64,000 nt of DNA from Smithellaceae bacterium (GCA_963682015.1 OY820932.1:23436-87435), one strand, 5' to 3'. Counted from the first letter of the stretch, positions 7,654-40,497 are shown. The notes: a model not told the origin generated them from the sequence alone. Translations and numbers: made by a program.

Positions 7654-7654
7654 T

Positions 7655-10830: not shown

Positions 10831-10856
10831 ACATTGAGTAATTTCAAAATCATCAG

Positions 10857-10895
10857 GCGCCGCGGTGCTCTCATTCCACGGCGCTTTTAATTTTT
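10857..10895 (+). terminator. Rho-independent terminator after the LysM gene
   Basis: Stem GCGCCGCGG/CCACGGCGC (9 bp, 1 mismatch), 10-nt loop, then TTTTAATTTTT. Confidence 0.7.
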
Positions 10896-10912
10896 CGACA
10901 GGTTTATCAAGC

Positions 10913-14769: not shown

Positions 14770-14814
14770 ATGCAGGGAACGGTCACGACCGTTTTCTGCA
14801 CCAGGCCGGAAACA

Positions 14815-15717: not shown

Positions 15718-15726
15718 GAGGATGCC

Positions 15727-25241: not shown

Positions 25242-25697
25242 ATGGGAAAAATTCTTTCGGTAAACATCAGCGGGAAAAAAGGCGAGAAAAAACACAATAT
25301 CGGAAGTGCGCGCGCTCTGATCAATCAGGGGCTGGAAAATGACGCCCACATCGGGATGGAAATCCGGCAGATCAGCCTGCTTGCGTCCGAAAGCATCGAA
25401 AAGATCCGGCAGAAAGGTTTAAATGTCAGTTACGGCGATTTTGCCGAAAACCTGACAACAGAAGGCATTGAGCTTTTTACACTCCCCCTGGGCACAAAAC
25501 TTCAGGTGGGAGGCAATGTCCTTCTTGAGGTCACCCAGATCGGTAAAACCTGTCTGGCGCCCTGCGCCATTTATCATTCGGTAGGCGATTGCGTAATGCC
25601 GAAGGAAGGTATTTTTGTCCGCGTGCTGACCGAAGGATTGGTTGCAGTGGGTGATTCTATCATCATCTTAGCTCCTCCTTCACATAAGGAAGATTAA
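25242..25697 (+). CDS. MOSC-domain protein
   Basis: ~150 aa. ILSVNIS..KGEKK......A.L...GLE.DAH and a conserved Cys region (GKTCLAPCAIY), as in stand-alone MOSC proteins. Confidence 0.75.
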   Translation: MGKILSVNISGKKGEKKHNIGSARALINQGLENDAHIGMEIRQISLLASESIEKIRQKGLNVSYGDFAENLTTEGIELFTLPLGTKLQVGGNVLLEVTQIGKTCLAPCAIYHSVGDCVMPKEGIFVRVLTEGLVAVGDSIIILAPPSHKED

Positions 25698-26542
25698 AGG
25701 CCCAGATAGGGACGTAGCACCGCGGGAACAAAATCAGCGAGTCTGCGGGTCAGCAATCGGGAGAGTTTATTGGATAAACCATGAGGGATAAACTTGGATA
25801 ATCCGAGATATAAAATCTGATTGCGCAAACCGGGAACATATCGTTCCTTGCCCCGTATAAAAGCTTTTACTCCAGCCACCGTAACTTCCTTCACATCCAT
25901 GAAAGACATTTTAATGGGGATGTAGTCTGAAGGAAACCCGGCATCGTCAATCAGACGCGTCCTGGTAAAAGGCGGGTTGAGCGTCGATACCGTCACTTTA
26001 CTTCCTGCGGGAAGCTCAGCCCGTACCGCCTCGGTCAGGCTCTGCGTGAAGGCCTTGGTGGCGGCATAAAGCCCAAGGGTCGGCACTGGCTGGAATGCCG
26101 AAACCGAAGAAATATTCAGAACTCCTCCATAATTGCGTTTGATCATGGCGGGAAGAAAGAGGCGGGTCATTTTGGCATAGGCAAGGCAGTTGAGCAGGAT
26201 CATGCCGGACAGTCTGTCCAGAGGCATGTCCGAATACCGACCAAACCAGCAGACTCCGGCATTGTTCACCAATACGTGGGCTTCTCCCACCTGTTGTGTA
26301 ATCTGCTCATGTAACTGTTCGGGACCGTTAGATCCTGTAAGGTCTGCGTAAAAGGTCCATGTCTTTATTTGAAAGGTTTTTTGAAGCTCCGCAGCCCAGT
26401 CCTCAAGATTTTTTTTCTGCTCGGGAAGATCCACCAGAATGATGTTTGCTCCCTGTCGTGCAAAACATTCCGATAATCCCTTGCCAATGCCCATGGCGGA
26501 ACCTGTAACAAGCACGTTCTTCCCCTTCAGTCTTAGCCCCAC
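25694..26542 (-). CDS. Classical short-chain dehydrogenase/reductase (last gene of the acyl-CoA operon)
   Basis: TGSAMGIGKG (TGxxxGxG), NNAG, Ser...YAATK catalytic set. GTG start with an AAAGGAG RBS. Confidence 0.88.
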   Translation of the reverse strand: MGLRLKGKNVLVTGSAMGIGKGLSECFARQGANIILVDLPEQKKNLEDWAAELQKTFQIKTWTFYADLTGSNGPEQLHEQITQQVGEAHVLVNNAGVCWFGRYSDMPLDRLSGMILLNCLAYAKMTRLFLPAMIKRNYGGVLNISSVSAFQPVPTLGLYAATKAFTQSLTEAVRAELPAGSKVTVSTLNPPFTRTRLIDDAGFPSDYIPIKMSFMDVKEVTVAGVKAFIRGKERYVPGLRNQILYLGLSKFIPHGLSNKLSRLLTRRLADFVPAVLRPYLGL

Positions 26543-26594
26543 TTTAATCTCCTTTTATTCATGAATCCTCTTTTGGGATCATTCATATGACTGG

Positions 26595-27554
26595 TTAAGC
26601 CTGCAGGATTCCCGATAACTTCACATAGCGCGCAAAATCCTCAAAGGCCTCGCTGGTCGTGTATCTGAAACGGTATCCCAGCTCCTTTTTGACCTTGGCG
26701 TTGCTCACGATCCACGGATAACGAATCATGTTCAGGCAAGGACTGGGAAACTCGGTCATAAAGGACAAACGAAGATGCCACATCAAGTTGTTCAATGGCC
26801 ACAAAAGCCTAGCAGGTACTTTCAGGGGATATCCGCCGAGGATGCGGATCATTTCATCGAAGGTCATGGTTCCGTCCGCAGCCAGATTGTATATGCCTTT
26901 CTTTCTCTTTTTCAGCAGGTGGTACATGATATCCACCAGGTCATCTTCATGGATGTATTGGAAAGGCGCTGTTTTAGACGGCAGGATGCAGATCTTTTTG
27001 CAGAGATGCCGCGCCAGCGGGTTGGTGAAACCCGGCCCCACCACAAAGCATGGGCGGATTGTCGTTAGAAGGATATCAGGATGCTCCTTCTCGAAGTCCT
27101 TCATCCACACCTCAATTTCCTTTTTGTTTTTGGCATAAGTGAAATCGTCGTTACCCCTCAGCGGACTTTCCTCGACCAGGTATTCGGGATTATCAGGATG
27201 AAACCCGTAAGCGGTACTTGAAGAACAATCGAGAATCTGCCCAACGCCATGGGCAGCGGCTGTCTTCAGGACATTTTTTGTACCATTCACATTGATGTCT
27301 TCCATCAGGATCTTGTCGTGGATAGGCGGCAGGATATAAGCGGTGTGAATCACACAGTCTATCCTCTCGCCACTGAACACCTCCTTCAGATCAGCCCTGA
27401 TATCGCTTTTGATAAATGACAGCTTGGGCGAATGGAACGCGGGTGGTTTGATGTCAATCCCGCATATGCGTTCAATTTCATTTTTATTCGCAAAAAAAGA
27501 TACAAGCTTTTGCCCAAAATATCCTGAAACACCGGTGATCAGAATGTTCTTCAT
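26595..27554 (-). CDS. Extended SDR / NAD-dependent epimerase-dehydratase (3-beta-HSD-like) family protein
   Basis: N-terminal ITGVSGYFG (GxxGxxG), YAKNK (YxxxK), ~320 aa. Confidence 0.82.
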   Translation of the reverse strand: MKNILITGVSGYFGQKLVSFFANKNEIERICGIDIKPPAFHSPKLSFIKSDIRADLKEVFSGERIDCVIHTAYILPPIHDKILMEDINVNGTKNVLKTAAAHGVGQILDCSSSTAYGFHPDNPEYLVEESPLRGNDDFTYAKNKKEIEVWMKDFEKEHPDILLTTIRPCFVVGPGFTNPLARHLCKKICILPSKTAPFQYIHEDDLVDIMYHLLKKRKKGIYNLAADGTMTFDEMIRILGGYPLKVPARLLWPLNNLMWHLRLSFMTEFPSPCLNMIRYPWIVSNAKVKKELGYRFRYTTSEAFEDFARYVKLSGILQA

Positions 27555-27563
27555 AAAGCTGCC

Positions 27564-28697
27564 TTACGTAAGGTGTTCATTGATGAGAGCCAGTTTCTTG
27601 AGCGGAACCATGCCGAGGAGGGCCTGGACTTGCCTGGCGTCCCGGTAACGCTTCTCCTGACCATAATCTTTCATGTACCCGTAGCCACCCAGTAACTGAA
27701 CGCCATCGGTAACGACCTCGCAGGCAAGATCATGGACGTGCAGTGCGGATGCAATGCTGATCCAGCCCCAGTCCTTGAGATTCTCGTCAATCGCCTTGCA
27801 GGTCTGAGTCACGCAAAGCTCGGCGGCCTTGGATTTGATCGCCATGTTGGACAGGAGCATCCTCACTTCCGACCAGTTGATCACCGGACGGCCGCCCTGC
27901 ATTCGCTCTTTTGTATACTCGATGGCTTCCTTGAGAGAACCTCTCATTATACCGGCATTGGTAGCAGCAGCGGCCACATGCATCATTCTGGAAGCAGCCT
28001 CGAAATACTTTGCCCCCTTGCCTTCCTCACCGATGATTTGGGCGCTGACATTGTTCAGGGTAACATCAACGATGGGGCTCGCATGGAGTCCGAGACTGAT
28101 GACGGGATTGCTTATCGAGACACCGCCGTCATTGAGGTTTACGAGGAAGAAGGAATAGCTTTTAGAGCCGGTGGCTCGGGCCGGGATGATTGCCCACTTC
28201 GAATAATTGCCAAGGGAGAGATAATCGAGTTTTCCCGTAAGCACGTAGCCTTTGCCGGAGGATATCGCGTTCGGCAGGATCCTCGACTGACCGGGATCCG
28301 TAAATGACGGGAAAGCGACGAGGTACTCCTGGGCAGTCTCAGCGCTTAAATAAACCTTTTCAGCTATTTCTTCTGCGCCGGCTTTCAGAATGATCTGCTG
28401 CGAGAGCGCACTCGTGAAAATGTTCAAACAATAGGAAGCGTCAACCTCTGCGACGTGGCCCAGCATCATGCAAAGGACGCTGATCCCCTGGCCGATACCG
28501 GCGTATTTTTCCGGCAACATGATACCCAGGAAACCCAATTCGTAGATCTTACGAAAACTCGTTTCGATGACATCGACATCAAGGCTCCCGTATGGATATC
28601 TGTCGTGTTCCTCGATGCTAGGCTTAAGGTCGCTCTTTGCATAGGATGTAATGAGATCCTCAAATGGCTTCAGGTCTTTGTTCAATGCAGTCAGCAT
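27564..28697 (-). CDS. Acyl-CoA dehydrogenase-fold protein lacking the catalytic Glu (putative non-catalytic beta subunit)
   Basis: ACAD-like throughout (...LLGGYGYMKDYGQEKRYRDAR...). Where ACADs carry (I/L)YEGT(S/N)EIQ it has QALLGMVPLKK. The TEPxAGSD-type region reads FPSFTDPGQSR. Confidence 0.75.
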   Translation of the reverse strand: MLTALNKDLKPFEDLITSYAKSDLKPSIEEHDRYPYGSLDVDVIETSFRKIYELGFLGIMLPEKYAGIGQGISVLCMMLGHVAEVDASYCLNIFTSALSQQIILKAGAEEIAEKVYLSAETAQEYLVAFPSFTDPGQSRILPNAISSGKGYVLTGKLDYLSLGNYSKWAIIPARATGSKSYSFFLVNLNDGGVSISNPVISLGLHASPIVDVTLNNVSAQIIGEEGKGAKYFEAASRMMHVAAAATNAGIMRGSLKEAIEYTKERMQGGRPVINWSEVRMLLSNMAIKSKAAELCVTQTCKAIDENLKDWGWISIASALHVHDLACEVVTDGVQLLGGYGYMKDYGQEKRYRDARQVQALLGMVPLKKLALINEHLT

Positions 28698-28711
28698 AGT
28701 CTCCTCCTTCC

Positions 28712-30220
28712 TTATTCTTCAAAAAATGCCGCGCCGGGACTGGCTTGGGGGCTAATGAGAGATTTAAACAGGTTGATTCGATTGAGCTGGTTGGTTCCTT
28801 CATAAATCTGAAGCAGTTTGGCATCCCGCAGAACTTTTTCCGCGCCGCTGTCATGCCTGAGCCCCGCCCTTCCCATAAGCTCGAGGGCCATCTGACAGTT
28901 CCTGACTCCGAAATCCGTGCAGGAAAATTTGGCCATGGAAGCCAGGCCCGTGGTCAGATGCTGGTCTTCCGGTTTTTGCCAGTCGAGGTACCACTTGCTC
29001 ATGAACCAGTTCACCATGCGCGAGTTCAGCAGGGGCGTAACGAACATTTTGAAATACATCACCGGCAGATACTTCGAATAGTAGTAGATGGGTTTCATCT
29101 GGAGAAGATTGTAGGCCCCCCGGTGCTGATTGGCCAGGTTGGACTCCATATAGGCAAGTCTGCCGAGTCTGACGTTGGCATACATTTCAGCCAGTCTGCA
29201 TTGCACCCACTCATAGTCGACCATGGGTTTGCCGTCGATCTCGGTCTCATTGGCATATTTCAAGGCAATCTCAAAGGCTCCGCGCGCAGCGCCGATTCCG
29301 AATGAGCCGACCCCCGCCCGGGAAAGAGAAAAGACATAATCAATGTGACGCATGTTGATGTCGCGGGGAGACTGTTTCGTGAATGATTTTAGCAAGTCAG
29401 GGTTGAGTACCACCAGTTCGTCGGGAACAAAACAGTCCTCGAAAATGAGCACGCTGGCCGGGCAGGCCCTCTGTCCCATTTTATTCTCGTGTCTGCCGAA
29501 GGAAAATCCTTTCATGCCTGTCCTCACCATCAGAGCCACCTTGGTATCAGCGCCCCTTTTCAGGTCGCCATAGGCATAGACTGTATGCCACGTTGAAAGA
29601 TGCCCGTTGGAGATGAATACCTTGCTGCCATTGAGGATATAGCCGCCATCGACCTTCCTGGCATGACATACGAGCCTGCCTCTTGCTTCCAGATCCACCT
29701 CCTCAACATCGGTACCCGCCGCAGGCTCGGTGATAGCATAAGAAATGAGGCATGGATTGCCGGTCTCCTCGCCGGCAACAACATCGCCCAATACCTTCTT
29801 CATAATCCTTGTGTTGCCTAACATCATGACTGCCGCCATGCCAAGATAATGCACGCCAATCAAATTCGCAAAACCAAGGCAGACCGATCCGACCTCCTCA
29901 TTGAAAAATGACAGGGAAGGCATGTTGTACCCCTTGCCGCCAAACATCTTCGGTATCCACAAAGTGTAAAGGCCCCATTCATTCGCTTTCCGAACAACTT
30001 CCGCGGGAATGTAGTCCAGGTCTTCATGGGTTTTCCGGTCGAGATCTAGATACAGAGGCCGTACCACTTCTTCTTTGAACTTGCGTGCCAGAGCGACCAC
30101 CTCCTCGGTTTCCTTGATCATGGCCTTGGGCATCCGCGGCCCGTAATACATCGAAAGTGTATTGTCTTCGAACCGGGGAAACTGAGATATGAATGATTTT
30201 ACCTCTGATCTCTTCAACAT
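28712..30220 (-). CDS. Acyl-CoA dehydrogenase (putative catalytic alpha subunit) with a C-terminal-domain insertion
   Basis: YAITEPAAGTDV, FISNG, and RDAKLLQIYEGTNQLNR (catalytic Glu present). The start at 30220 (MLKRSEV) has an AAGGAG RBS 6 nt upstream; the ORF-track start is 30241. Confidence 0.85.
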   Translation of the reverse strand: MLKRSEVKSFISQFPRFEDNTLSMYYGPRMPKAMIKETEEVVALARKFKEEVVRPLYLDLDRKTHEDLDYIPAEVVRKANEWGLYTLWIPKMFGGKGYNMPSLSFFNEEVGSVCLGFANLIGVHYLGMAAVMMLGNTRIMKKVLGDVVAGEETGNPCLISYAITEPAAGTDVEEVDLEARGRLVCHARKVDGGYILNGSKVFISNGHLSTWHTVYAYGDLKRGADTKVALMVRTGMKGFSFGRHENKMGQRACPASVLIFEDCFVPDELVVLNPDLLKSFTKQSPRDINMRHIDYVFSLSRAGVGSFGIGAARGAFEIALKYANETEIDGKPMVDYEWVQCRLAEMYANVRLGRLAYMESNLANQHRGAYNLLQMKPIYYYSKYLPVMYFKMFVTPLLNSRMVNWFMSKWYLDWQKPEDQHLTTGLASMAKFSCTDFGVRNCQMALELMGRAGLRHDSGAEKVLRDAKLLQIYEGTNQLNRINLFKSLISPQASPGAAFFEE

Positions 30221-30323
30221 AGGTTCTCCTTTCCCAATCATCGTATTTTCTTTAAATTTGTCTGGCTCATTGAAAAAGGGTCCGGTTGACCGTCATGGAC
30301 CACCGGGCGCCGATTATCTCCTG

Positions 30324-31928
30324 TTATCCAAGAGAAATGATATTAGGCGCATTGGGCCGGAATTCCTCCCGCAGGAGTCTGTCCAGGTTCTTCTCCGACG
30401 CGGTTTTGGGAATCTCGGACACGATCTGAAGATAGGAAGGAATTGAATTTTTCTCCAAGATCTTCCCCAGTTCCACGGATATTCTCTTTGCATCAATGGC
30501 CCCGTTTCCATTGGCGGGTACAATGGCCGCCACAATGTCACTCTCTCCGGGTGCGCCGGTGCTGGCAGGAATGCCATAGACACAGACATCGTTCACTTCG
30601 GGAAGATCGGCCAGGGCCTTCTCGACATATTCGGGTAAAATGAAATCGCCGTGACGGCGAAGCCCGCCGCCTTTGCGGAAATCAAAATACAACCAGCCGT
30701 TGGCATCCCGGTGGCACATATCGCCCGTGCGCAACCAGCCGCCGCGCGTCTTCGCCTCTGAGGCATCCTTTTTGCCATGGTATTCCACTTCCTCTTTTTT
30801 GGCGCCAACCATCCGGCAGATCAATTCTCCAATTTCACCCGGTTTGCACTCCGTGTCGTCTTGATGAACGACTTTCATCTCCATGATTCCTTCAATCGGT
30901 TTGCCGAATGATCCGAGGGGGCCGGTGCCGGGTTCATTGTGGGCAAATCCTCCCTCCACGGCGCCATACCATTCGTGAATCTTGACATTGAAGCGCTCTT
31001 CAAAATCTTTCCAGATCGGCAGAGGCGTGCCGGCGCTGAGCACCTTGCGGACCGGATTATCCCCGTCGCTTTCCTTTTTCTTTTCACTGTAGATACCCAT
31101 CATCATGCCGCCCAGGAGTGAAAAGCTGGTCACACCATACTTGCGGCAGATGTCCCACAAACGGCTCTTGGTAAATGAACGACTGACAACAGCAGACATA
31201 CCGAGAAGAAGGGCCGGGCTCAAAGTCACAGACTGGGCGTTGCCGTGGGTCATGGAAAGTCCCGTGTACAGAACATCATCGTTGTTGTATTGCCAGATGA
31301 GCTGGGCAAGCAGTTTGAACATGGAAAGACGGTTGGACTTGACGACGACGCCCTTGGGATCCCCCGTGGTCCCTGAAGTGTAAATGATTTCGAACGGTGA
31401 TTGGGGATCGCGGTTGCGGTCAGCGGGAGGATCGATCTTCGGACCATCCAGGGTGGAGGCCAGATCCGGGTACTGATCACGGCGCGGCGTTTCGAAGCCG
31501 GGTTTGTACAATATCCCGATAACTTTCACATGGGGAAATTCCGCCAGAGTTTTTTCCACTTCTCCCGCATATTCGTTGCTGAAGATGATTCCTTTGGAAT
31601 TGGAATCCCGGACCTGATAGGTCAGCTTGTTTCCTTTCGACCGGGGATCGATGGGAACAATGACAGCGCCAATCAGCGAAGCTGCCATCATGCAATAAAC
31701 GAATTCCGGATGATTCTTCATCACGACACTGAACCGGTCGCCGTTGCCGATGCCTGCCTTCCGGAGGGCGGATGCCAGCTTGCACCCTTTCAGAAAGATG
31801 TCCGCATAGGTAACTGTTTCATCGGGCCAATCACCATTTTCAAATGTCAACACCTTGAAATCCGGTTTCTCTTCATATTTTGCCTCTATCTCATAGGAAA
31901 ATAATCCCTGTACCATTTCTCCCTGCAT
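30324..31928 (-). CDS. AMP-forming acyl-CoA synthetase/ligase
   Basis: AMP-binding motif IIYTSGTTGDPKGV, plus YGAVEGG, WLRTGD and a C-terminal lysine region (IPKTASEK). The ATG at 31928 has a GGAGG RBS; the ATG at 31940 is an alternative. Confidence 0.88.
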   Translation of the reverse strand: MQGEMVQGLFSYEIEAKYEEKPDFKVLTFENGDWPDETVTYADIFLKGCKLASALRKAGIGNGDRFSVVMKNHPEFVYCMMAASLIGAVIVPIDPRSKGNKLTYQVRDSNSKGIIFSNEYAGEVEKTLAEFPHVKVIGILYKPGFETPRRDQYPDLASTLDGPKIDPPADRNRDPQSPFEIIYTSGTTGDPKGVVVKSNRLSMFKLLAQLIWQYNNDDVLYTGLSMTHGNAQSVTLSPALLLGMSAVVSRSFTKSRLWDICRKYGVTSFSLLGGMMMGIYSEKKKESDGDNPVRKVLSAGTPLPIWKDFEERFNVKIHEWYGAVEGGFAHNEPGTGPLGSFGKPIEGIMEMKVVHQDDTECKPGEIGELICRMVGAKKEEVEYHGKKDASEAKTRGGWLRTGDMCHRDANGWLYFDFRKGGGLRRHGDFILPEYVEKALADLPEVNDVCVYGIPASTGAPGESDIVAAIVPANGNGAIDAKRISVELGKILEKNSIPSYLQIVSEIPKTASEKNLDRLLREEFRPNAPNIISLG

Positions 31929-32010
31929 GCTAGCCTCCATTTAGTACGCTTAAATACTCGTTTGATATTCCGTTTTTACATCAATCGAAGTAAAGGTTTT
32001 TCAATTCATA

Positions 32011-33252
32011 TTATTTTACTTTTCCCAGGATGTGGATGCCCATGGCCGCCTCTTCCACACCAATGTTGCCTCCACCGTTTTCCGCCAGTCCGATTCTGGC
32101 CCCTTCCACCTGCCGTTTTCCGGCATCGCCCCGGAGCTGCGTCACCAGTTCATGAATCTGGGAGAGGCCGGAAGCACCTATGGGGTGTCCCTTACACTCC
32201 AGGCCGCCACTTGTGTTGATGGGTTTTTTACCCCCAAGTTTTGTTGCCCCGGATTGGGCAAACGGTCCGCCTTCTCCCATGGGGCAAAATCCCATAGACT
32301 CTGTCTGATGGAGTTCACCCCAGGATGTCGCATCGTGCAGTTCGGCGAAGTCGATGTCTTCCGGACCAATGCCCGCCGCATCGTAAGCCTGCTTGGCCAG
32401 ACGTTCTCCGATATCCGGCGCGTTGATATCACGGTCCGTGCCGGTGCCGAGAATCGAGGCCATAATCCGGACCGGCCGTGCGTTTACCAGTTTTTTCAGA
32501 TATTTTTTCGAACAGATGATTGCTGCGGCAGCCCCGTCGCCGACTGGCGCGCACATCGAACGCGTCAACGGGTAGGCAACGGCCTTGTCCGCCAGAACCT
32601 CCTCCACAGTCATTGTATGCTGATACTGAGCCAGCGGATTTAGCGATCCATGAAAATGGTTCTTGGAGCAGATTACAGCCAGCTGATGCTGATTTGAGCC
32701 GAAACGGCTCATATGCCAGCGTGCACCCAGCGCATAAGCGTCCATGAAAATGCTTCGCCCTTCCCCCGGCGCCGACTGATCCTCCGGAAGCTTCACTGTG
32801 AAGGTTCTGCTCAGCTCCATGATATTGTTGATGTGCTTTTCAAAGTTGCCCACATCCATGCATGTGGCATAAGCTCCAAGGGAAAGGGACTTGTTCGGAT
32901 TTGTAATTTTTTCCGAACCCATGGCGAGGGCCACATCATACATTCCAGCCCTGATCCCCGTGCAGGCCATATGCAGCGCTGTTGATCCACCCGCGCAGGC
33001 ATTTTCCACATTAGTGATGGGGATTCTTCCAACTCCCATATTCCGCATAACCACCTCGCCGCGGATGGAATGCTGATTATCGAACATTCCCCAGAAGGTA
33101 TTGGCAAAGAATACCGCTTCCATGTCTTCCTTCGCCAGTCCCGCGTCTTCCAAAGCCAGTTCAATGGCTTCGTGCGCCATGGTTTGCACCGTCTTATCGG
33201 GATATTTTCCAAACCGGATCATCCCGACACCGATAATGTAAATGTTTTCCAT
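32011..33252 (-). CDS. SCP-x / nonspecific-lipid-transfer-type thiolase
   Basis: MENIYIIGVGMIRFGK..., active-site NACAGGSTAL, and a C-terminal GGLECKGHPIGASG...ENGGG pattern typical of SCP2-type thiolases. AGGAGA RBS. Confidence 0.85.
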   Translation of the reverse strand: MENIYIIGVGMIRFGKYPDKTVQTMAHEAIELALEDAGLAKEDMEAVFFANTFWGMFDNQHSIRGEVVMRNMGVGRIPITNVENACAGGSTALHMACTGIRAGMYDVALAMGSEKITNPNKSLSLGAYATCMDVGNFEKHINNIMELSRTFTVKLPEDQSAPGEGRSIFMDAYALGARWHMSRFGSNQHQLAVICSKNHFHGSLNPLAQYQHTMTVEEVLADKAVAYPLTRSMCAPVGDGAAAAIICSKKYLKKLVNARPVRIMASILGTGTDRDINAPDIGERLAKQAYDAAGIGPEDIDFAELHDATSWGELHQTESMGFCPMGEGGPFAQSGATKLGGKKPINTSGGLECKGHPIGASGLSQIHELVTQLRGDAGKRQVEGARIGLAENGGGNIGVEEAAMGIHILGKVK

Positions 33253-33307
33253 CTTATCTATCCTTTCTCCTGTTTTTAAAAATCATGGATGCCCATGATG
33301 ATTTTAA

Positions 33308-35755
33308 TCATTTCACCCAGACGACCTTGGGAAACTCTCTCTCTACAACGCAATCCATTCTCACCGCCGGGTAGCCAACCGTGATGATCTCCGCCACGGT
33401 TGCATATGGCCAGACAACACCAAGACGTTCTTTGTATTTCTTCATCTTCGGATCCATATTCAGAACGGAAGTGGCAAATCCCACGTAGCAGGTGCCCAGC
33501 CCCAGAGAATGTGCTGCCAGAACAATGTTCTGTCCGCACACGCCGGTTCCAAAAGCCATATCGGATATGTATTGCTTGTGACCGAGAATGAGGATGGCCG
33601 TAGGGGCATTGAAAAAGACGCTTTGCGGCTCTTTCCCGTACTTGGGTGTCATCAGGGCCTGAATGGCCAGCATGGGCCTCTGGTCGATGGCTTCGGGCTT
33701 CATGATGGCCAACGTATTTTTCAACAAGGTGCGGGGAAGACTTTTGCCCTGGTAGAGTTTGGAAAAGGTGTGCAGGAACTTCCTTGTTCCATCGCTGATC
33801 TCATCCATCAAAGCCCGGTCTTGAAGCACGCTGAATTTCCATCCCTGGCAGTTTCCCGCCGAAGGGGCAAAACGTCCCGCCTCCAGAATCCGGTGGATCA
33901 TATCATCAGGAACCTGGTCCGGCTTATAGATTCGAGTGGATCTCCGCTGGTAGATCACCTTTTCCGTCTCGGTCAGTTGGGAGGCAATGGAACTGAATTC
34001 CGGCACCTCAGCAGCCCGGAGGGGATTGGGATACCCGCCTCCCGTTTTCCTGGGGTAATCGAATTCATAACGCCAGCGACCGTTTTCAACGGAGTAAAAA
34101 TGAGGGAAACGAAGGGCCTGATTCGGGCAGACCGCTTCACAATTGCGGCAGGCCAGACAGATTTTCCCGAAATAGGGCATGCCGACAAATGATGATTTTG
34201 AACTTCCGCAGCGAATGCACCGCCTGGCTTCCACAAGGACCTGATCGGCATGAATCGGCAGATGAACCTCCGTGTCCATATTCCTGAGGCGTTCGGCAAC
34301 GGACATCAGAGAACAGCTGTTGCGGGGAATTTTTTCGTATTCGTTAAAGGGCATGCCCTTGTATGAAATTTCGAGTTTCCTGCTGTCTTTGAATTGCCTG
34401 CTTTTGATATGGGCGACAATCGCGGCAGCCGCCCTGCGTCCGGCACCGATTGCCGCCGTCACCGTTGCCGGACCTGAGACGACATCTCCACCGGCAAAAA
34501 CGCCTTTCATCGTGGTCGCACAGCTTCCGCCGGCCTCGATGATTCCCTTTCCGTTGATCAGACTCTCAAATCCTTCCGCCACAATGACCTGGCCGATAGC
34601 CGATATCACCGCATCAGCGGCTACAGTGAATTCACTGCCGTCAACGGGAACGGGTTGCGCCCTTCCTGATTTGTCTTTTTCTCCCGGTTTCATTTTGATG
34701 CAGGTCATGGTGAGGGATGTTTGGTTTCTCTTGATTCCGACAGGGGCGCATAGACCCTGTATGGCGATGCCTTCCTCCTGCGCCTCGGCAATCTCCGATT
34801 CATGGGCTGGCATATCTTCCAGCGACCGTCGGTAAAAAATGGTCACATTGGACCCCAGACGTCTCAATGAACGGGCCGTATCAATGGCCGTGTTGCCGCC
34901 GCCGATGACAATGACCTTTTGTCCCGGAGCATCTTTACGCCCCTGCGCGACTTTCTTCAGAAATTCCAGGCCGGAGTGAATGAGGTCTTCCTTTTCTCCG
35001 TCGATCCCGAGCTTGCCCGTGTCCTGGCAGCCAATCGCTACATAGACCGCTTTGAAATCCTTTCGGAGCTCTTCAAGCGCCACGGACCTGCCAACTTCTA
35101 CATTGCATCGAATATCAACACCCAGGTCGGCGATTCTTTGGATTTCTTCATCCAGAACGGGTCTGGGTAGACGATAGGAAGGGATGGCATAGCGCAGCAT
35201 CCCGCCGGGCTGAGGCCGGGATTCAAATATGGTCACGGAATATCCCGCAAGCGACAGGTGATAGGCGCAGGACAAGCCCGAAGGTCCCGACCCGATGACC
35301 GCCACTTTGTTATCGGACAATGGATTCTTTCTTTGAAAACGAAGTTCCTTTTCTATGGCATAGTCCCCGATAAACCACTCGACGCCATGGATACCCAGAG
35401 ACTCGTCAACATTGCTCCGATTGCAGCCTGATTCGCAGGGATGCGGACAAACTCTTCCGGTGATGGCAGGCAGGGGATTGGCTTCCGTAATGACTTTCCA
35501 CGCATCTTCAAAAGACCCGCCATGGGTGAGGAGATGAAGGTAACGCCGGACATCGATCCCGGCAGGACATTGATGCTGGCAGGCCGGTTCCTGATATTTC
35601 GACGGTTCACGATCCACCATTCCGATCGTTTGAGCGGGGCATTGTTTGACGCACATGCCGCAGCCGATACACTTGTCCTCGTCCAGGATGATGTTCCAGG
35701 GAGCACCCTTCACAGGGGGATCACTGAGATTGCTCCATTTACTGTTTGCAGCCAT
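33308..35755 (-). CDS. Multi-domain Fe-S flavoprotein: ferredoxin-like + GltD/NfnB-like NAD(P)H:FAD oxidoreductase + ferredoxin-like + nitroreductase-family domain
   Basis: CIGCGMCVKQCP; CQHQCPAG and RVCPHPCESGC (GltD-type N-terminal clusters); VAVIGSGPSGLSCA (FAD); VIVIGGGNTAIDTA (NAD(P)H); GVFAGGDV; CIRCGS...CLACRNCEAVCP. The C-terminal ~230 aa has RRSTRIYK...APSAGNCQGWKF (nitroreductase fold). The start at 35755 has an AAGGAG RBS. Confidence 0.85.
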   Translation of the reverse strand: MAANSKWSNLSDPPVKGAPWNIILDEDKCIGCGMCVKQCPAQTIGMVDREPSKYQEPACQHQCPAGIDVRRYLHLLTHGGSFEDAWKVITEANPLPAITGRVCPHPCESGCNRSNVDESLGIHGVEWFIGDYAIEKELRFQRKNPLSDNKVAVIGSGPSGLSCAYHLSLAGYSVTIFESRPQPGGMLRYAIPSYRLPRPVLDEEIQRIADLGVDIRCNVEVGRSVALEELRKDFKAVYVAIGCQDTGKLGIDGEKEDLIHSGLEFLKKVAQGRKDAPGQKVIVIGGGNTAIDTARSLRRLGSNVTIFYRRSLEDMPAHESEIAEAQEEGIAIQGLCAPVGIKRNQTSLTMTCIKMKPGEKDKSGRAQPVPVDGSEFTVAADAVISAIGQVIVAEGFESLINGKGIIEAGGSCATTMKGVFAGGDVVSGPATVTAAIGAGRRAAAAIVAHIKSRQFKDSRKLEISYKGMPFNEYEKIPRNSCSLMSVAERLRNMDTEVHLPIHADQVLVEARRCIRCGSSKSSFVGMPYFGKICLACRNCEAVCPNQALRFPHFYSVENGRWRYEFDYPRKTGGGYPNPLRAAEVPEFSSIASQLTETEKVIYQRRSTRIYKPDQVPDDMIHRILEAGRFAPSAGNCQGWKFSVLQDRALMDEISDGTRKFLHTFSKLYQGKSLPRTLLKNTLAIMKPEAIDQRPMLAIQALMTPKYGKEPQSVFFNAPTAILILGHKQYISDMAFGTGVCGQNIVLAAHSLGLGTCYVGFATSVLNMDPKMKKYKERLGVVWPYATVAEIITVGYPAVRMDCVVEREFPKVVWVK

Positions 35756-36261
35756 ACGATCATGCTCCTTTCCAGCTAAAAAGATAAGCCATCCATCTCT
35801 GTTCACATGTTCATGTTGCCTCATTTTCTTGTGTATGCTTCAATATCAGGCGGGATGACTCAAAACAATATTGCCGGGGGGTCATTTCATTTGTGAGCTG
35901 CGGTCACAAAGGTGTCCGCTGTCTGGAGACCTCACTATTCCATGAAAGTTAAAATAAATTTTAGATGAATGATTAAATTGAGTTTCAAGGGTGATTTTCA
36001 GTGCGGAAAAATCATTGCCTGGCACCGGTCGATGGTCAAATTCATTGACCCGTGACCGCAAATCACAATATATATGGCCTTAAATCATATTCTCTATTAC
36101 AGGAATAAATTGTATAGTAAAATGAATTCAGCAGCACGTTGCTTTATGGATGGAAAAGTTTTTAATATAGAGGCCGCATTTTAGATGAAGTAGACTCGAC
36201 AATTCTTTGTTCAAGGACTCCTGGATTGTAGAAACGGTGAACACCATAAGGATGATTGCTT

Positions 36262-37311
36262 ATGAAACAGTCTGAAGACCTCAGCAGGATTCATCTTAAA
36301 TCAACGGATCGTTTGCAACTTAAGCGTTCCATCTACAGCGTGAGAATACTGGTCGATTATGCAAAGAAGTTCAACATTCCGGCTGAGGTCCTGTTGTATG
36401 GCAGCACGATCAAACCCGGCGATCTCGCTGATCCTGAGATGTTTATCACCCCTGAAGAAGAACTGAAGATCTTCAGGAGATCGATCCTGCTGATCCCTGA
36501 CTCGAAACTCGGTTTGGAAATAGGCAGGCTGCACAATGCCAGCGCCATGAGCCGGGTTGCCATACCGGCCATGTTTTGTGAAACGGCCCTTGATGCATTC
36601 CGTATCATGTTCAAGTATATTGATCTCACACAGACTTATTGTCAATACGATCTTATTGTCAAAGACGATCTTGCCATCCTGAGCTGCAAGGAACTGATCG
36701 TGTTCGGAGATCTGAGGCGCTTTCTATGCGAGCGTGATTTGGCGTCAAACTATATTTTAAGCCGTACTGCACTGGGCGGTCCTTTTATTCTGAAAGGAAT
36801 AACGCTGACGTATCCACGGCCTGAATACACCAGGGCATATCAGGATATGTTCAATTGCCCCATCACCTTCAATACGGACAAGTTTCAGGTTTTTTTCGAC
36901 AAAAACTATTTAAACGCCCGTCTGCCTCTGGCCAATGCCCTGACCAGGGATATCTATGAAAAAGAGTGTAAACGTGCCTATGCACGCCTGCATGAAAAAA
37001 AGTCCACATTGGACAAGATACAGGAGGAACTGTTGTTTCCTCAGGCTGAGTCCCCTTGTTTCGATCAACTGGCCCGCCGGATGAACATGTCAGCGCGGAC
37101 ACTGAGGCGCCACCTGTCCGCCGAGGGCATATCCTACAAAAATCTATCAAATGAGATTCGGAAAAAAAAGGCTCTCGAACTGCTTACTTCAACGAGTCTG
37201 TCCATAGAAAAAATTGCAACTGAACTCGGATATCAAAATGTGGCGAATTTCTATCATGCCTTTAAACTCTGGACGGGCGCAACGCCCAGCAGCTATCGGA
37301 AGACCAAGTGA
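36262..37311 (+). CDS. AraC-family transcriptional regulator (N-terminal AraC-binding-like domain plus C-terminal dual HTH)
   Basis: The C-terminus LARRMNMSARTLRRHL...IATELGYQNVANFYHAFKLWTGATPSSYR is the AraC/XylS HTH_18 signature. Divergent from the acyl-CoA operon. ATG at 36262 with an AAGGA RBS. Confidence 0.9.
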   Translation: MKQSEDLSRIHLKSTDRLQLKRSIYSVRILVDYAKKFNIPAEVLLYGSTIKPGDLADPEMFITPEEELKIFRRSILLIPDSKLGLEIGRLHNASAMSRVAIPAMFCETALDAFRIMFKYIDLTQTYCQYDLIVKDDLAILSCKELIVFGDLRRFLCERDLASNYILSRTALGGPFILKGITLTYPRPEYTRAYQDMFNCPITFNTDKFQVFFDKNYLNARLPLANALTRDIYEKECKRAYARLHEKKSTLDKIQEELLFPQAESPCFDQLARRMNMSARTLRRHLSAEGISYKNLSNEIRKKKALELLTSTSLSIEKIATELGYQNVANFYHAFKLWTGATPSSYRKTK

Positions 37312-37574: not shown

Positions 37575-38687
37575 CTATCCGGTTTTTTTACAGGTGAAAA
37601 GCAAGACCGGTTTAATCGTTGTCCCCAGAAGAGAATCTTTTATGGCACGATTAATCTGCCTGAAATTATAAAATTTGATCAGCCGGTCAAAAGGAAATTT
37701 TCCGGCTTTATACCATCGAATCATGCGCGGGATGAATTTCTGCGGAACGGAATCTCCCGCAATCACCGACACGACTTTCCGGCCCGGGGGCGCCAAATCA
37801 GGCCCCCCGTCGCCTGTAAAATACGCCGCAGTACCACCTTTTTTCAGCACGTCAACAGCCATTTGCATGATCGTGGAACAGCCGGTGGTTTCCAGCGAAT
37901 AATCGATGCCACCCGGCGCAATCTCCCGGATGGCCGCTGCAATATCGGATCTTCGGCCGTCCACGAAGTGCGTCGCACCCAGTTCCAGGGCCAGTTTCAG
38001 GCGGGATGGCCTGATGTCCACTGCTATGACAGGCGCTGCACCGATCATATGGCCGGCCATTACGGCGGAAAGCCCCACCGCGCCTGATCCGAAAACAACC
38101 ATGCTTTCTTTTTTCCGTATTTTCAACTGATTCATGACAGCCCCTGCGCCCGCCTGTATACCGCATCCCAGAGGCGCCAGAAGGGAAAGAGGCAGAGTCC
38201 TGTCAACCTTGACCATGTTGCGTTCGGTAGTCAGCATGTGCGTGGCAAACGAAGACTGGCCGAAGAAATGCCCCCTCACGCCGCTTGCCGCGAATCCGTT
38301 AGTCCCGTCCGCACGCCGGAATCCGAAATTCAGATCATAAAATATCCGGCATTTTGTCGGCCGCCCGCTCCTGCAACTTGCACAGATGCCGCAGGATTGA
38401 AAAGACAGAATCACATGGTCGCCGGGGCGAAACCTCTTCACTTTACTGCCGACTTCTTCTACAATCCCGGCGCCTTCATGCCCCAGCACCTGCGGGCCGT
38501 CCGCCTCGTCCCAGTAATGCAACATACTGATGTCTGTATGGCATACACCTGTTGCCACGGTTCGTACCAGTACTTCATCATTCCGCGGATGTTCTATCCG
38601 GAGTTTTTCAATCCGGAGCGGTCCATCTTTTCGCCGCACAACCGCCGCCTGAACGCTCCTGACTTCTGAACTCTTTCTGACAGCCAT
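37575..38687 (-). CDS. Zinc-dependent NAD(P) alcohol dehydrogenase (aryl/benzyl-alcohol dehydrogenase-like)
   Basis: GVCHTD, GHEGAGIVEEVG, structural-Zn Cys cluster (CGICASCRSGRPTKC), GSGAVGLSA Rossmann motif, and a C-terminal FPFDRLI...IKPVL as in XylB-type enzymes. Confidence 0.88.
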   Translation of the reverse strand: MAVRKSSEVRSVQAAVVRRKDGPLRIEKLRIEHPRNDEVLVRTVATGVCHTDISMLHYWDEADGPQVLGHEGAGIVEEVGSKVKRFRPGDHVILSFQSCGICASCRSGRPTKCRIFYDLNFGFRRADGTNGFAASGVRGHFFGQSSFATHMLTTERNMVKVDRTLPLSLLAPLGCGIQAGAGAVMNQLKIRKKESMVVFGSGAVGLSAVMAGHMIGAAPVIAVDIRPSRLKLALELGATHFVDGRRSDIAAAIREIAPGGIDYSLETTGCSTIMQMAVDVLKKGGTAAYFTGDGGPDLAPPGRKVVSVIAGDSVPQKFIPRMIRWYKAGKFPFDRLIKFYNFRQINRAIKDSLLGTTIKPVLLFTCKKTG

Positions 38688-38814
38688 CCGGCGCCTTTCT
38701 GTTCTTTTTTAACGCATTTTACCATGAACATAATTGCTTTGCATTCCGGAGATGAGGGAATATAATAAAAAAACGGTTCAACCGGTTTACCCGATTTTTT
38801 CAGGAGGCGCCTGC

Positions 38815-39384
38815 ATGAAAGCTTTCATCGATCCGCCCAAACGCATCCCCTTTTATTTGCGCATCGGTATCTGGATATCCAAGTTGGTTACAGGACGAGA
38901 CCTTCTTCCGGGAAGGCTCCTGGCCTGGTATCCTAAAACAGCCATCAGCTCCGGCATCATGGAAGTACTGGTGGCTCACAAGGATAAAACGCTTGATAAA
39001 CGCATTCTCAAACTGGTCCGTATTCAAGCTTCATTCAGCGTGGCCTGCCCGTTCTGCATTGACATGAATTCTTATGACTTTGATCAGTTCGATATTACGC
39101 CTCAGGAGCTTGCAGCACTGCAGAAACAGATGAACCTTGAATCCGTCGGGACATTTTCTCCGCGTGAAATACTTGCAATGGAGTATGCCTCGCTGATTTC
39201 CAGCGCTCCTCTTTATTTTCCATCGGATTTTATCAGCCGTCTGAAAGCCCGCTTTACCGAGCGTGAAATCGTCATTCTGGCGTCAACCGTCGCTCAAGTC
39301 AACTACTGGGCCAGACTTCTTCAGGCTCTTGGTGTACCCCCCGCTGGCTTTTCAAACCAGTGCAGCATGCAAATAACTGAATAA
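38815..39384 (+). CDS. Carboxymuconolactone decarboxylase / AhpD-like family protein
   Basis: VACPFCIDMN (CxxC in an AhpD-like core), ~190 aa. ATG at 38815 with a CAGGAGG RBS; the ORF-track start at 38734 is unlikely. Confidence 0.7.
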   Translation: MKAFIDPPKRIPFYLRIGIWISKLVTGRDLLPGRLLAWYPKTAISSGIMEVLVAHKDKTLDKRILKLVRIQASFSVACPFCIDMNSYDFDQFDITPQELAALQKQMNLESVGTFSPREILAMEYASLISSAPLYFPSDFISRLKARFTEREIVILASTVAQVNYWARLLQALGVPPAGFSNQCSMQITE

Positions 39385-39396
39385 CAAGACCTGTAC

Positions 39397-40335
39397 TTAG
39401 ATATTTTTATCGTTTGTGGGCTTCATTTTTCTGTAATATGTCCATAATCGTTTATTCGGCATGAAAAACCGTACATTGCGTTTTTCTGTCTGAAAGCCAA
39501 GCCGTTTGGTAAACTTATACCACCATTCATCGAAACGCGTGGGTTGCCAGCTGCCGGCCCAATGAACCAGGAAAACAGGAGTTTGCTGAAAATAAATTCT
39601 CCCTTTATAGGCAATGCCGATTGATTCACCACCCCATTTTTCAAACTTGATATCCACGCAACCGGTCAGCCATGAAATAACCACCAGACTGGTATAACGA
39701 CAATCAGAAGTTATGAAATAATAATTTAATAAAGGTTGTTCCATGCATGCTAGTTCCATATGCGGCCGGAGTTCCTCAGCAGCAGACAGTTTTTCCGTCA
39801 TCATTTTCAGATTAAAGGCTGATTTTTTTGAAACAATAAATCCCGTGTTGGCTGAAAATTCGATCTGTTCCTTTGTGAGCTTATTGGTCTCAAAAATGCT
39901 GTTTTTCCAGACCCATTGCTGTAAGTTCGGATAGTTTGAATGGGATGTAATCACATCGTAATTTAGCAGAAATTGAAATACAAAATTGATATTGGCCAGA
40001 ACAACCATATCGACGTCAATGTAAACGAACTCATCGAATATCCCGTCCCACATGGCTAATTTGCGATAAGCGCCACAGGTATGCTCATGAAATTTCCTGC
40101 TGATTTCATCACAAGCCTCCAGAGTCCTGGAATCATCCCAGATTGTAAACCGGTACCTCTCCGACAACGCTTTGATCTTTTGCGAATCGTCGTCAAACGG
40201 AATCATGCATAAAGCGATTTCGGGATTATAGCATCGGAAACTATTTAAGAATGCAATTGTCAATTCGAAAGTCGTATCATTGGCTAAAAAATATATTCCT
40301 CTTTTCGTCCGTTTGCTGTTGTCAATCGAGTTCAT
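39397..40335 (-). CDS. Hypothetical protein, possibly a GT8-like nucleotide-sugar transferase (DxD motif)
   Basis: 312 aa. RGIYFLANDTTFELTIAFLNSFR... and YIDVDMVV (DxD-like) resemble GT-A/GT8 enzymes. Noticeably more AT-rich than its neighbours in my spot counts. The family assignment is tentative. Confidence 0.45.
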   Translation of the reverse strand: MNSIDNSKRTKRGIYFLANDTTFELTIAFLNSFRCYNPEIALCMIPFDDDSQKIKALSERYRFTIWDDSRTLEACDEISRKFHEHTCGAYRKLAMWDGIFDEFVYIDVDMVVLANINFVFQFLLNYDVITSHSNYPNLQQWVWKNSIFETNKLTKEQIEFSANTGFIVSKKSAFNLKMMTEKLSAAEELRPHMELACMEQPLLNYYFITSDCRYTSLVVISWLTGCVDIKFEKWGGESIGIAYKGRIYFQQTPVFLVHWAGSWQPTRFDEWWYKFTKRLGFQTEKRNVRFFMPNKRLWTYYRKMKPTNDKNI

Positions 40336-40420: not shown

Positions 40421-40497
40421 TGGTCGGGGCGAGAGGATTTGAACCTCCGGCATCTTGGTCCCAAACCAAGCGCGCTACCAGGCTGCGCTACGCCCCG
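40421..40497 (-). tRNA. tRNA-Pro (anticodon UGG)
   Basis: The reverse complement CGGGGCGTAGCGCAGCCTGGTAGCGCGCTTGGTTTGGGACCAAGATGCCGGAGGTTCAAATCCTCTCGCCCCGACCA folds by hand. Acceptor 7 bp, D stem GCGC/GCGC, anticodon stem CTTGG/CCAAG with loop TTTGGGA, T-loop TTCAAAT, encoded CCA. Confidence 0.95.

Follow-up and report, generated by a model that had tools for sequence, protein, structure and literature searches.

What is a protein that joins ferredoxin, NAD(P)H-dependent flavoprotein and nitroreductase parts doing at the head of a cluster of acyl-coenzyme A (acyl-CoA) genes, and is it a genuine polypeptide? The question arises from a 64,000-nucleotide stretch of DNA from a Smithellaceae bacterium (GCA_963682015.1 OY820932.1:23436-87435; referred to throughout as the window), in which an original prediction described a single 815-aa polypeptide with a ferredoxin, a GltD/NfnB-like flavoprotein, a second ferredoxin, and a nitroreductase-fold domain, in that order. 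The gene lies on the minus strand at 33308-35755 (the plus-strand translation of the same span is riddled with stops), and its reading begins with an ATG at 35755 inside a slightly longer open reading frame (ORF; 33308..35824, minus strand). A GGAAAGGAG ribosome-binding site is located ∼8 nt 5' of this ATG, and the five nearest homologues of the fusion protein are also exactly 815 aa long, all of which bears out the single polypeptide. A join of two genes by sequencing error, which was suspected at 34150-34400 (residues ∼452-536), is ruled out: a search of 5.8 billion proteins with the 815-aa protein gave at least 120 clusters (at 90% identity) with the identical full architecture (806-875 aa, 45-86% identity, 99-100% coverage), and the suspected junction holds E509, R512, C513, C516, G517, C533, and C536, all of which are invariant in the 21 homologues across which residue invariance was judged. 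The architecture is carried by several anaerobic lineages, including Smithella, Syntrophaceae, Desulfobacterium, Desulfocicer niacini, other Thermodesulfobacteriota, and Spirochaetota. No record matched the window's protein exactly, and its homologues are named only as 'FAD-dependent oxidoreductase', 'NAD(P)-binding protein', or 'GltD-like oxidoreductase/nitroreductase'. No function is assigned to the architecture in Pfam or NCBIfam (generic families only), in the PDB (no close relative of the nitroreductase part), or in the literature, where our search found no paper on the four-module architecture or on its gene cluster; the claim that no characterized enzyme has this architecture therefore stands.

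The relationship between the modules is evident from shorter relatives. A search with the C-terminal 241 residues alone yields 1,169 relatives, the nearest of which (40-62% identity) are proteins of 330-350 aa with a 2x[4Fe-4S] ferredoxin domain followed by a nitroreductase domain (stand-alone ferredoxin-nitroreductases, or Fd-NTRs, such as P0141 and P0243). Their N-terminus, 'K(F/W)xxLSDPPV...DExKCxGCGxCVxQCP', aligns with that of the fusion, and they run straight on into 'KPxFxG(L/M)PYFGKIC(I/L)AC(H/R)NCEAVCP', which corresponds to fusion residues 520-544. A chimera of fusion residues 1-52 and 520-815 aligns over essentially the whole of P0141 (348 aa; 59% identity, E = 7e-161, 343 of 348 residues), and because this alignment is colinear, the two ferredoxin segments are halves of a single domain. 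The GltD/NfnB-like module, of ∼465 residues (∼55-519), is thus an insertion into one ferredoxin domain, where it separates the two CxxCxxCxxxCP motifs; with the insert removed, the protein has the hallmarks of the two-domain Fd-NTR family, including all eight Cys residues and the 'LYQGK...DQRP' insertion. The four module types originally described are all present, as are the motifs quoted for them (VAVIGSGPSG, VIVIGGGNTAID, CIRCGS...CLACRNCEAVCP, RRSTRIYK, and SAGNCQGW), but their linear order is not, since the GltD module sits inside a split ferredoxin domain. Similarly, the CIRCGS segment taken for a second ferredoxin is composite: its C533-C543 part is the second ferredoxin half, whereas the CIRC pair belongs to the GltD module.

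The inserted module itself is rearranged. Residues 487-517 ('...EARRCIRCG') align by phmmer to residues 14-43 of NfnB (4ylf_B), in which this segment precedes the 'C..CP' that matches fusion residues 58-64, and in StnC (8oh5_C) and 9bov_A the equivalent segment is on the C-terminal side, as it is in the fusion. Because the segment matches both the NfnB N-terminus and the StnC/9bov_A C-terminal site, we assign the CIRC pair (C513/C516) to the GltD module, and these alignments show that the insert is a GltD/NfnB module that has undergone circular permutation, as in the StnC/PRK12771 type. The module recurs, permuted in the same way, in a 1,475-aa HdrA-like polyprotein of Smithella sp. SCADC (L018 9689-14116, plus strand), where it is placed after a CxxCxxCxxxCP motif and is followed by 'RCLNCGICSECYQCVDAC', that is, inside a Fer4 domain; at least two protein families thus have an NAD(P)H module built into a Fer4 domain. 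A PRK12771-type protein (in L002) combines the permuted module with a complete C-terminal ferredoxin, and the occurrence of the module in both the HdrA-like and the PRK12771-type proteins marks it as a recurrent plug-in. In the fusion, both ends of the insert are within ∼20 residues of ferredoxin Cys residues, and for this reason the clusters should form one contiguous Fe-S wire.

Pfam matches cover residues 22-61 (Fer4), 55-137 (Fer4_20, PF14691; 1e-21, 76.9 bits), 150-439 (Pyr_redox_2, PF07992; 8e-30, 104.8 bits), 533-553 (Fer4_7), and 601-795 (Nitroreductase, PF00881; 3.3e-28, 99 bits against a cut-off of 23.5), and residues 54-574 pass NCBIfam NF009410 (PRK12771, 'NAD(P)-binding protein') with 539.3 bits against a cut-off of 516. 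The nitroreductase part matches no curated NCBIfam family, the best being BluB, at 46 bits against a cut-off of 150. All seven Cys residues of the GltD-type module (59, 63, 103, 107, 111, 513, and 516) are invariant, with the same number aligning in NfnB, as are the eight of the ferredoxin domain (29, 32, 35, 39, 533, 536, 539, and 543), the dinucleotide and flavin residues G155, G157, G160, E178, G285-N288, A290, D292, and G422-D424, and R604, R605, S606, and R608 of the RxSxR motif for the phosphate of flavin mononucleotide (FMN). The nitroreductase domain also has a family-specific insertion, 'LYQGK...IDQRPM', with invariant D691 and R693. The predicted cofactors are flavin adenine dinucleotide (FAD), an NAD(P)H site, four [4Fe-4S] clusters, and FMN; the donor may be NADPH, as suggested by alignment of the fusion's 'FYRR' with the 'VYRR' of NADPH-binding NfnB. 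In a full-length AlphaFold2 model, the flavin module is predicted with a per-residue confidence (pLDDT) of ∼90, and a model of residues 500-815 (pLDDT 85) matches 3pxv and 3ek3 in Foldseek with a probability of 1.0 and template-modelling scores of 0.79-0.82, placing it in the nitroreductase fold. Sequence identity to 3pxv, 3ek3, and 5j62, all of them uncharacterized structural-genomics targets, is 20-24%, and no solved nitroreductase exceeds ∼25% identity to the fusion's domain. In these models, which are of monomers only, the last 17 residues have a pLDDT of <50 at full length, which would fit a swapped arm, but score 86-89 in the C-terminal model; the protein itself is probably a homodimer. 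Domains, motifs, and fold together support the proposal that a GltD-like module is wired through Fe-S clusters to a fused nitroreductase-fold partner.

The GltD module is not a constant part of the system. Loci are numbered L here: L087 and L088 encode the short form in a ligase-acyl-CoA dehydrogenase-thiolase-FdNTR-epimerase-short-chain dehydrogenase cluster, which is syntenic with L083, a locus that has the fusion in the equivalent position; the synteny extends to the sigma-54 regulators and arg genes on the flanks. L089 and L090 have the same cluster, also with a short Fd-NTR. In a neighbour-joining tree of the nitroreductase domain (21 fusions and 22 short forms, 50 bootstraps), a basal clade composed entirely of short forms is split from the rest (50/50 bootstraps), but other short forms nest with fusions: P0139, P0141, and P0142 with P0024 and P0033 (46/50 bootstraps, 77% identity), and P0146, P0147, and P0150 with P0042 and P0073 (50/50 bootstraps). 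Since the two forms are found in the same gene cluster and some short forms branch among the fusions, the module is an optional NAD(P)H input cassette that has been gained or lost repeatedly. This pattern places catalytic identity in the Fd-NTR core, with the cassette altering only the electron source, and the short forms, which lack the ∼465-residue insert, must take their electrons from an external donor. The nitroreductase subfamily is small when clustered at 50% (E ≤1e-30), and ∼6 of its 31 representatives are long forms. In two metagenome contigs (L095 and L106), separate ORFs, adjacent or overlapping, encode the GltD and nitroreductase parts (129 + 291 aa and 552 + 290 aa); these could be real split genes or the product of frameshift errors, the contigs being short.

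What the enzyme acts on is best approached through its neighbours. A profile search of genome contigs with the full-length alignment returned mostly generic GltD homologues and 2 full-length loci; further loci came from contigs encoding known homologues and from a metagenome scan with the Fd-NTR alignment, giving 95 loci in all. Neighbours were scored by BLAST and counted in the 29 loci flanked by 5 kb or more on either side. A thiolase gene is the most constant neighbour (26/29 loci), followed by genes for an AMP-forming ligase (22/29), an acyl-CoA dehydrogenase (ACAD; 19/29), a classical short-chain dehydrogenase/reductase (SDR; 14/29), and an extended SDR (13/29). Most of the loci without the AMP-forming ligase have a PaaK-like ligase or a CoA-transferase in its stead, and eight of the 29 (including L092, L086, L117, L130, and L142) lack any ACAD gene within 8 kb while having a thiolase and/or ligase, L092 being 84% identical to the fusion over the Fd-NTR region (residues 500-815). 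The neighbours are kept in five other lineages with homologues at 46-56% identity, and the thiolase and ligase context persists at 37% to 86% identity in Thermodesulfobacteriota, Spirochaetota, and Myxococcota. Unbiased clustering of the neighbouring ORFs of the 95 loci found no recurrent hydratase or electron transfer flavoprotein (ETF) family; regulators, the PaaK-like ligase, an extended SDR-ferredoxin fusion, and an SCP2-like protein do recur. The last of these, a sterol-carrier-type protein of 127-138 aa, is encoded just upstream of the ligase in ∼11 loci and is absent from the window cluster.

Within the window, the fusion gene leads a cluster of seven genes on the minus strand, which are spaced by no more than 55-80 bp (Table 1), and the ORF layout and Pfam content bear out its description as the first gene of an acyl-CoA operon. 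The small ACAD has 'QALLGM' in place of 'IYEGT', and since it lacks the catalytic Glu motif, the two ACAD genes probably encode a heteromer with a single catalytic subunit; a pair of 500 and 350-380 aa recurs in L081, L089, L090, L104, and L107. The top NCBIfam match of both is the acryloyl-CoA reductase AcrC. Residues 376-435 of the 509-aa subunit (28937-29116, minus strand) form a ∼60-residue aromatic and hydrophobic insertion, 'IYYYSKYLPVMYFKMFVTPLLNSRMVNWFMSKWYLDW', which is absent from structures of the medium-chain ACAD (MCAD) type and could be a membrane- or lipid-contacting or docking element. The NCBIfam matches of the ligase are of the long-chain type. The divergent AraC-family gene is likely the operon's regulator, and an AraC-type gene is also near the homologous cluster in L081. 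AraC, sigma-54, and TetR regulators and methyl-accepting (MCP) chemoreceptor genes adjoin the clusters, suggesting a catabolic role. The SCP2-like protein, the MMPL, DUF1302, and DUF1329 genes in L085 (Desulfocicer niacini), the hydrophobic ACAD insertion, and the long-chain-type ligase matches point to a lipophilic substrate.

Some of these loci offer observations in their own right. L085 has a stand-alone 279-aa nitroreductase-family gene (7512-8351, plus strand) two genes upstream of the fusion, by the MMPL, DUF1302, and DUF1329 genes. The SDR-ferredoxin fusions (L153 2665-4413, minus strand; also L133, L135, L138, L148, and L168) are extended SDRs of 582-604 aa with a C-terminal 2x[4Fe-4S] ferredoxin domain, and their clusters carry the PaaK-like ligase, not the usual AMP-forming one; the presence of an Fe-S domain on a nicotinamide-dependent SDR is puzzling. 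In L090, from a Myxococcales metagenome-assembled genome, the cluster is flanked (1-1433 and 9980-11830) by genes for a 1,411-aa BcrAD_BadFG + DUF2229 protein, an alpha/beta-hydrolase, and a 616-aa radical SAM protein; BcrAD_BadFG with DUF2229 is the architecture of plasmalogen synthase and of 2-hydroxyacyl-CoA dehydratase activators, so the cluster may be connected with the modification of lipids in this lineage.

We propose that the fusion is an NAD(P)H-fed Fe-S flavoenzyme that directly reduces a lipophilic acid or CoA ester at the nitroreductase FMN, an interpretation to which we give an even chance of being correct. The protein would be a homodimer of an Fd-NTR core whose ferredoxin domain houses the permuted NAD(P)H:FAD/[4Fe-4S] module. 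NAD(P)H, probably NADPH, would deliver hydride to FAD, and single electrons would then travel to FMN by way of four clusters, first the GltD-type [4Fe-4S] pair and then the pair in the re-joined ferredoxin domain. The reduced FMN could in turn reduce an activated double bond (of the enoyl, dienoyl, or enone type) in a lipophilic carboxylic acid or CoA thioester, with the substrate made by the adjacent CoA ligase and the chain then cleaved by the adjacent SCPx-type thiolase; in forms without the GltD cassette, a soluble low-potential donor such as ferredoxin would feed the same enzyme. We infer the chemical class of the substrate, and also the direction of electron flow, which should be reductive because NAD(P)H is at -320 mV and typical C=C couples are near 0 mV. 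The same wire logic is found in dihydropyrimidine dehydrogenase (DPD) and in FadH, and there is a precedent for C-C (de)saturation of lipid-like substrates by nitroreductase-fold enzymes (PMC10404671).

Several observations sit uneasily with this proposal. The cluster lacks an enoyl-CoA hydratase, which leaves the pathway logic unexplained. A competent ACAD is encoded in most loci, and the nitroreductase gene is coupled to, or alone with, an ACAD gene in L090 and L091, such that a partnership between the two is possible. In the AlphaFold2 model, which has a cluster-free ferredoxin, confidence is low for the linkers and for each ferredoxin half, that is, along the postulated chain of clusters. 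Single-electron delivery by Fe-S clusters is also hard to square with nitroreductases, which as a rule avoid the flavin semiquinone. Finally, we know of no nitroreductase-fold enzyme that acts on CoA thioesters.

The ACAD association gives rise to the alternative that fares best, although we consider it unlikely: that the protein substitutes for ETF, with its Fd-NTR part and the ACAD flavin swapping electrons. The ACAD would then either work as an enoyl-CoA reductase powered by NAD(P)H (long form) or ferredoxin (short form), or pass its electrons to them. Besides the frequency of ACAD genes in the well-flanked loci, the nitroreductase gene in L090 overlaps the stop codon of the small ACAD gene (translational coupling), and that in L091 is beside a gene for a 611-aa ACAD with neither thiolase nor ligase. 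There is no Pfam match to ETF in the fusion protein or the annotated ORFs of the window, matching its lack of recurrence in the 95 loci, and AcrC, the closest family of both ACADs, is ETF dependent; an ACAD-fold protein is also known to pair with a nitroreductase-fold flavin reductase in two-component monooxygenases. However, the thiolase is a more faithful partner than the ACAD, the associated ACADs are from different subfamilies, and the FMN of nitroreductases is in a substrate pocket at the dimer interface, docking onto other flavoproteins not being known. An outlet for ACAD electrons would moreover have to move them from acyl-CoA (∼-10 mV) to NAD(P)+ (-320 mV), which on established potentials is ∼300 mV uphill. 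Where a reductase and an ACAD electron outlet were originally held to be equally plausible, the direct reductase is the better fit, and the outlet is weakened both by this barrier and by the eight of 29 loci with thiolase or ligase but no ACAD.

Could the enzyme instead run oxidatively, with the FMN desaturating or aromatizing a low-potential substrate and electrons passing to NAD(P)+ (long forms) or ferredoxin (short forms)? AlbA and SagB are nitroreductase-fold enzymes that carry out desaturation, and DPD-type wires are reversible, as in PreT/PreA. TyzC, likewise, is a nitroreductase-fold C-C desaturase (PMC10404671). Oxidative catabolism is dominant in the hosts, which are mainly syntrophs and sulfate reducers, but C-C desaturation beside a thioester (∼-10 mV) cannot reduce NAD(P)+ or ferredoxin; only unusual aromatizing or aldehyde-type oxidations could, none of the cluster genes suggests them, and the cluster already has an ACAD and two SDRs for oxidations. 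We therefore regard oxidative running as improbable.

Electron bifurcation or confurcation, in which the NfnB-like FAD would split the NADPH electron pair between a high-potential branch (FMN and substrate, or the ACAD) and a low-potential one (external ferredoxin), we think very improbable, because the protein has a single wire with no NfnA-like branch. The nearest solved relatives of the module are indeed subunits of bifurcating complexes (NfnB 4ylf_B and 5jca_L, StnC 8oh5_C, and 9n5u NfnA), the L018 HdrA-like giant protein has the same permuted module, and the host lineages depend on bifurcation. Yet the sequence topology is of one chain and not two branches, there is no second cluster path in the protein or operon, and an NfnA-type partner (with an FNR-like FAD and [2Fe-2S]) is absent from the protein, the operon, and the recurrent neighbours of the 95 loci; the module is also dispensable in sister lineages, and GltD and DPD run it without bifurcating.

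A generic detoxifying nitro- or quinone reductase located beside a fatty acid operon by chance is similarly remote: the nearest solved relatives are uncharacterized 'nitroreductases' of anaerobes and Giardia ferredoxin-nitroreductase fusions reduce nitro drugs, but the thiolase and ligase context is conserved across three phyla, the gene is operonic with gaps of 55-70 bp, and the nitroreductase insertion with D691 and R693 is specific to the family. Other pathway assignments were rejected. Ole-type olefin or beta-lactone biosynthesis, considered since L090 brings together a thiolase, an AMP-ligase, a 3-beta-hydroxysteroid dehydrogenase (3-beta-HSD)-type reductase, and an alpha/beta-hydrolase, is set aside because the thiolase is SCPx-type and not FabH/OleA-type, the hydrolase is not recurrent, and the regulators and chemoreceptors suggest catabolism. 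The heteromeric ACAD, SCPx thiolase, 3-beta-HSD, and weak CasI/FadD17 ligase matches are reminiscent of steroids, but degradation of steroid or bile acid side chains is unsupported: the ACADs are nearest to generic MCAD-type structures, no ChsE-type chain is among the best 60 chains listed, and there is no MaoC hydratase. The C6-dismutation pathway for propionate of Smithella fits poorly with the lipid-carrier genes and with so broad a taxonomic spread.

The direct-reductase proposal can be set against several known systems. DPD, in its mammalian form and in the bacterial PreT/PreA, passes electrons from NADPH to FAD, two GltD-type and two ferredoxin-type [4Fe-4S] clusters, and FMN for C=C reduction, the same order as is predicted for the fusion; both are expected to be obligate dimers, and the GltD-like parts are homologous (1gt8_A, 2.6e-33), with DPD chains aligning only to fusion residues 55-453. 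The FMN domain of the fusion is nevertheless of the nitroreductase fold and not a dihydroorotate dehydrogenase-like TIM barrel (it has no PF01180-type match in Pfam and no equivalent one in NCBIfam), its ferredoxin domain is split around the GltD module whereas that of DPD is C-terminal, its GltD module is circularly permuted, and its genetic context is of CoA esters and not pyrimidine metabolism. The stand-alone Fd-NTRs are colinear with it outside the insert, share the 'LSDPPV' signature, the nitroreductase insertion, and the gene cluster, and differ in lacking the insert; no member is of known function. The NfnB/StnC/PRK12771 modules (4ylf_B, 5jca_L, 8oh5_C, 9bov_A, and 9n5u_A) match with phmmer E values of 1e-105 to 1e-71 and share the FAD and NADPH motifs, StnC and 9bov_A also share the permutation, and the HdrL-like protein of L018 shares the location in Fer4; GltD-like genomic relatives are 36-44% identical to the fusion module. 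In contrast to these, the fusion has no NfnA, HydBC-like, or formate dehydrogenase-like partner domain, its output is the nitroreductase FMN, and there is no sign of bifurcation.

The 2,4-dienoyl-CoA reductase FadH and the related Fe-S flavoenzymes of the old yellow enzyme (OYE) family (NCR and BaiCD) provide an analogy, passing electrons from NADPH through FAD, [4Fe-4S], and FMN to an unsaturated CoA thioester, an auxiliary step beside an ACAD and a thiolase. BaiCD and NCR match weakly and only in the Rossmann region, and the fusion has no Oxidored_FMN (OYE TIM-barrel) domain and four clusters rather than one; the two are not redundant, since a FadH-like gene adjoins the fusion gene in L083. 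The enone reductase CLA-ER of Lactobacillus plantarum is a nitroreductase-fold enzyme that acts on a lipid-like C=C bond, and is similar in its FMN and in hydride chemistry on activated C-C bonds, although NAD(P)H or O2 acts directly at its FMN and it has no Fe-S domains. The same likenesses and differences hold for TyzC (PMC10404671). The fusion is a variant among the NAD(P)H-Fe-S-flavin reductases, with an unusual domain-insertion history.

Table 1. Positions of the fusion gene, its segments, and associated genes (window coordinates unless a locus is named)
Feature	Position	Strand	Basis
Whole gene, GltD-inserted ferredoxin-nitroreductase oxidoreductase, 815 aa + stop	33308..35755	-	ORF, ribosome-binding site, Pfam, NCBIfam, at least 120 full-length homologue clusters
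Ferredoxin half 1, residues 22-52, C29xxC32xxC35xxxC39P	35600..35692	-	Fer4; 'LSDPPV' signature ahead of Cys motif, common to stand-alone Fd-NTRs; colinear with P0141 N-terminus
Fer4_20-like Fe-S domain of inserted GltD/NfnB-like module, residues 55-137, C59/C63/C103/C107/C111	35345..35593	-	PF14691; aligned to NfnB, StnC, 9bov_A
FAD + NAD(P)H dinucleotide-binding domains, residues 150-450, GSGPSG/GGGNTAID/FYRR/GGD	34406..35308	-	PF07992, NF009410, AlphaFold2 pLDDT ∼90
Linker + permuted start of Fer4_20, residues 451-519, 'EARRC513IRC516G'	34199..34405	-	phmmer alignment; invariant R512, C513, C516, G517
Ferredoxin half 2, residues 520-560, C533xxC536xxC539xxxC543P	34076..34198	-	Fer4_7; colinear with second motif of stand-alone Fd-NTRs
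Nitroreductase-fold FMN domain, residues 596-815, RRSxR + 'LYQGK...IDQRPM'	33311..33970	-	PF00881, Foldseek, invariant residues
SCPx-type thiolase, 413 aa, nucleophilic Cys86 + GHP motif	32011..33252	-	Pfam; PDB best matches BbsB 7pxp_C and SCP2-thiolase 6hsj
AMP-forming acyl-CoA ligase, 538 aa	30324..31940	-	Pfam, NCBIfam
ACAD large subunit, 509 aa, catalytic 'IYEGTNQ' Glu	28712..30241	-	Pfam, sequence, structure matches
ACAD-like small subunit, 377 aa, without catalytic Glu motif	27564..28697	-	Pfam, NCBIfam, sequence
Extended SDR, 3-beta-HSD/NAD-dependent epimerase family	26595..27554	-	Pfam; recurs in related loci
Classical SDR	25694..26542	-	Pfam, NCBIfam
AraC-family regulator, divergent, Arabinose_bd + HTH_18	36256..37311	+	Pfam
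SCP2-like protein, L083	5140-5523	+	
SCP2-like protein, L122	6691-7101	+	
SCP2-like protein, L086	14237-14653	+	

The genes flanking the cluster in the window are housekeeping genes (relA/spoT, proS, ispG, nadA, and metXW), and a scan for promoters and terminators gave counts that did not differ from those of shuffled sequence. A tRNA-Pro(TGG) gene (40421-40497, minus strand) is ∼4.7 kb upstream of the operon's regulator, and the G+C content of the operon (25700-36000) is 0.51-0.53 compared with 0.44-0.48 in the flanking housekeeping DNA; together these are a weak hint of horizontal acquisition of the cluster. Between a Zn-alcohol dehydrogenase gene (37575-38687) and the tRNA gene are two putative ORFs (38734-39384, plus strand, 216 aa; 39397-40335, minus strand, 312 aa) with no Pfam match at 1e-5. 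Unrelated to the fusion are a gene for a 516-aa DUF4301 protein (11868-13418, minus strand; 611 bits, full length) and, adjoining it, genes for a complete Liv-type branched-chain amino acid ABC transporter (13642-18438, plus strand), made up of a binding protein, two permeases, and two ATPases.

The behaviour of this protein family bears on modular enzyme evolution, as an NAD(P)H:Fe-S module has been spliced into the middle of a ferredoxin without destroying the domain, with repeated switching between ferredoxin and pyridine nucleotide dependence, and the cofactor wire of DPD would have been re-created on a different catalytic fold, a case of convergence. The family also draws attention to a conserved and uncharacterized CoA-ester cluster, composed of a ligase, an SCPx-type thiolase, a heteromeric ACAD, and two SDRs, often with an SCP2 carrier, whose hosts are Syntrophales/Smithella, Desulfobacterales, Spirochaetota, and Myxococcota of digesters, peat, and sediments. 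A more speculative extension, which we would rate as doubtful, is that the Fd-NTR, fed by low-potential electrons and with or without its NADPH cassette, is the signature enzyme of an unrecognized, hydratase-free anaerobic pathway for lipophilic carboxylic acids, in which its reduction of a CoA thioester (enone, dienoyl, or ring) directly yields the beta-ketoacyl-CoA for the SCPx-type thiolase. If so, it would be the first nitroreductase-fold enzyme to act on CoA esters and would define a new auxiliary beta-oxidation route in syntrophs and sulfate reducers. The identity of the substrate would fill a gap in anaerobic degradation of lipids and hydrocarbon-derived acids, and would widen the known chemistry of the nitroreductase superfamily.

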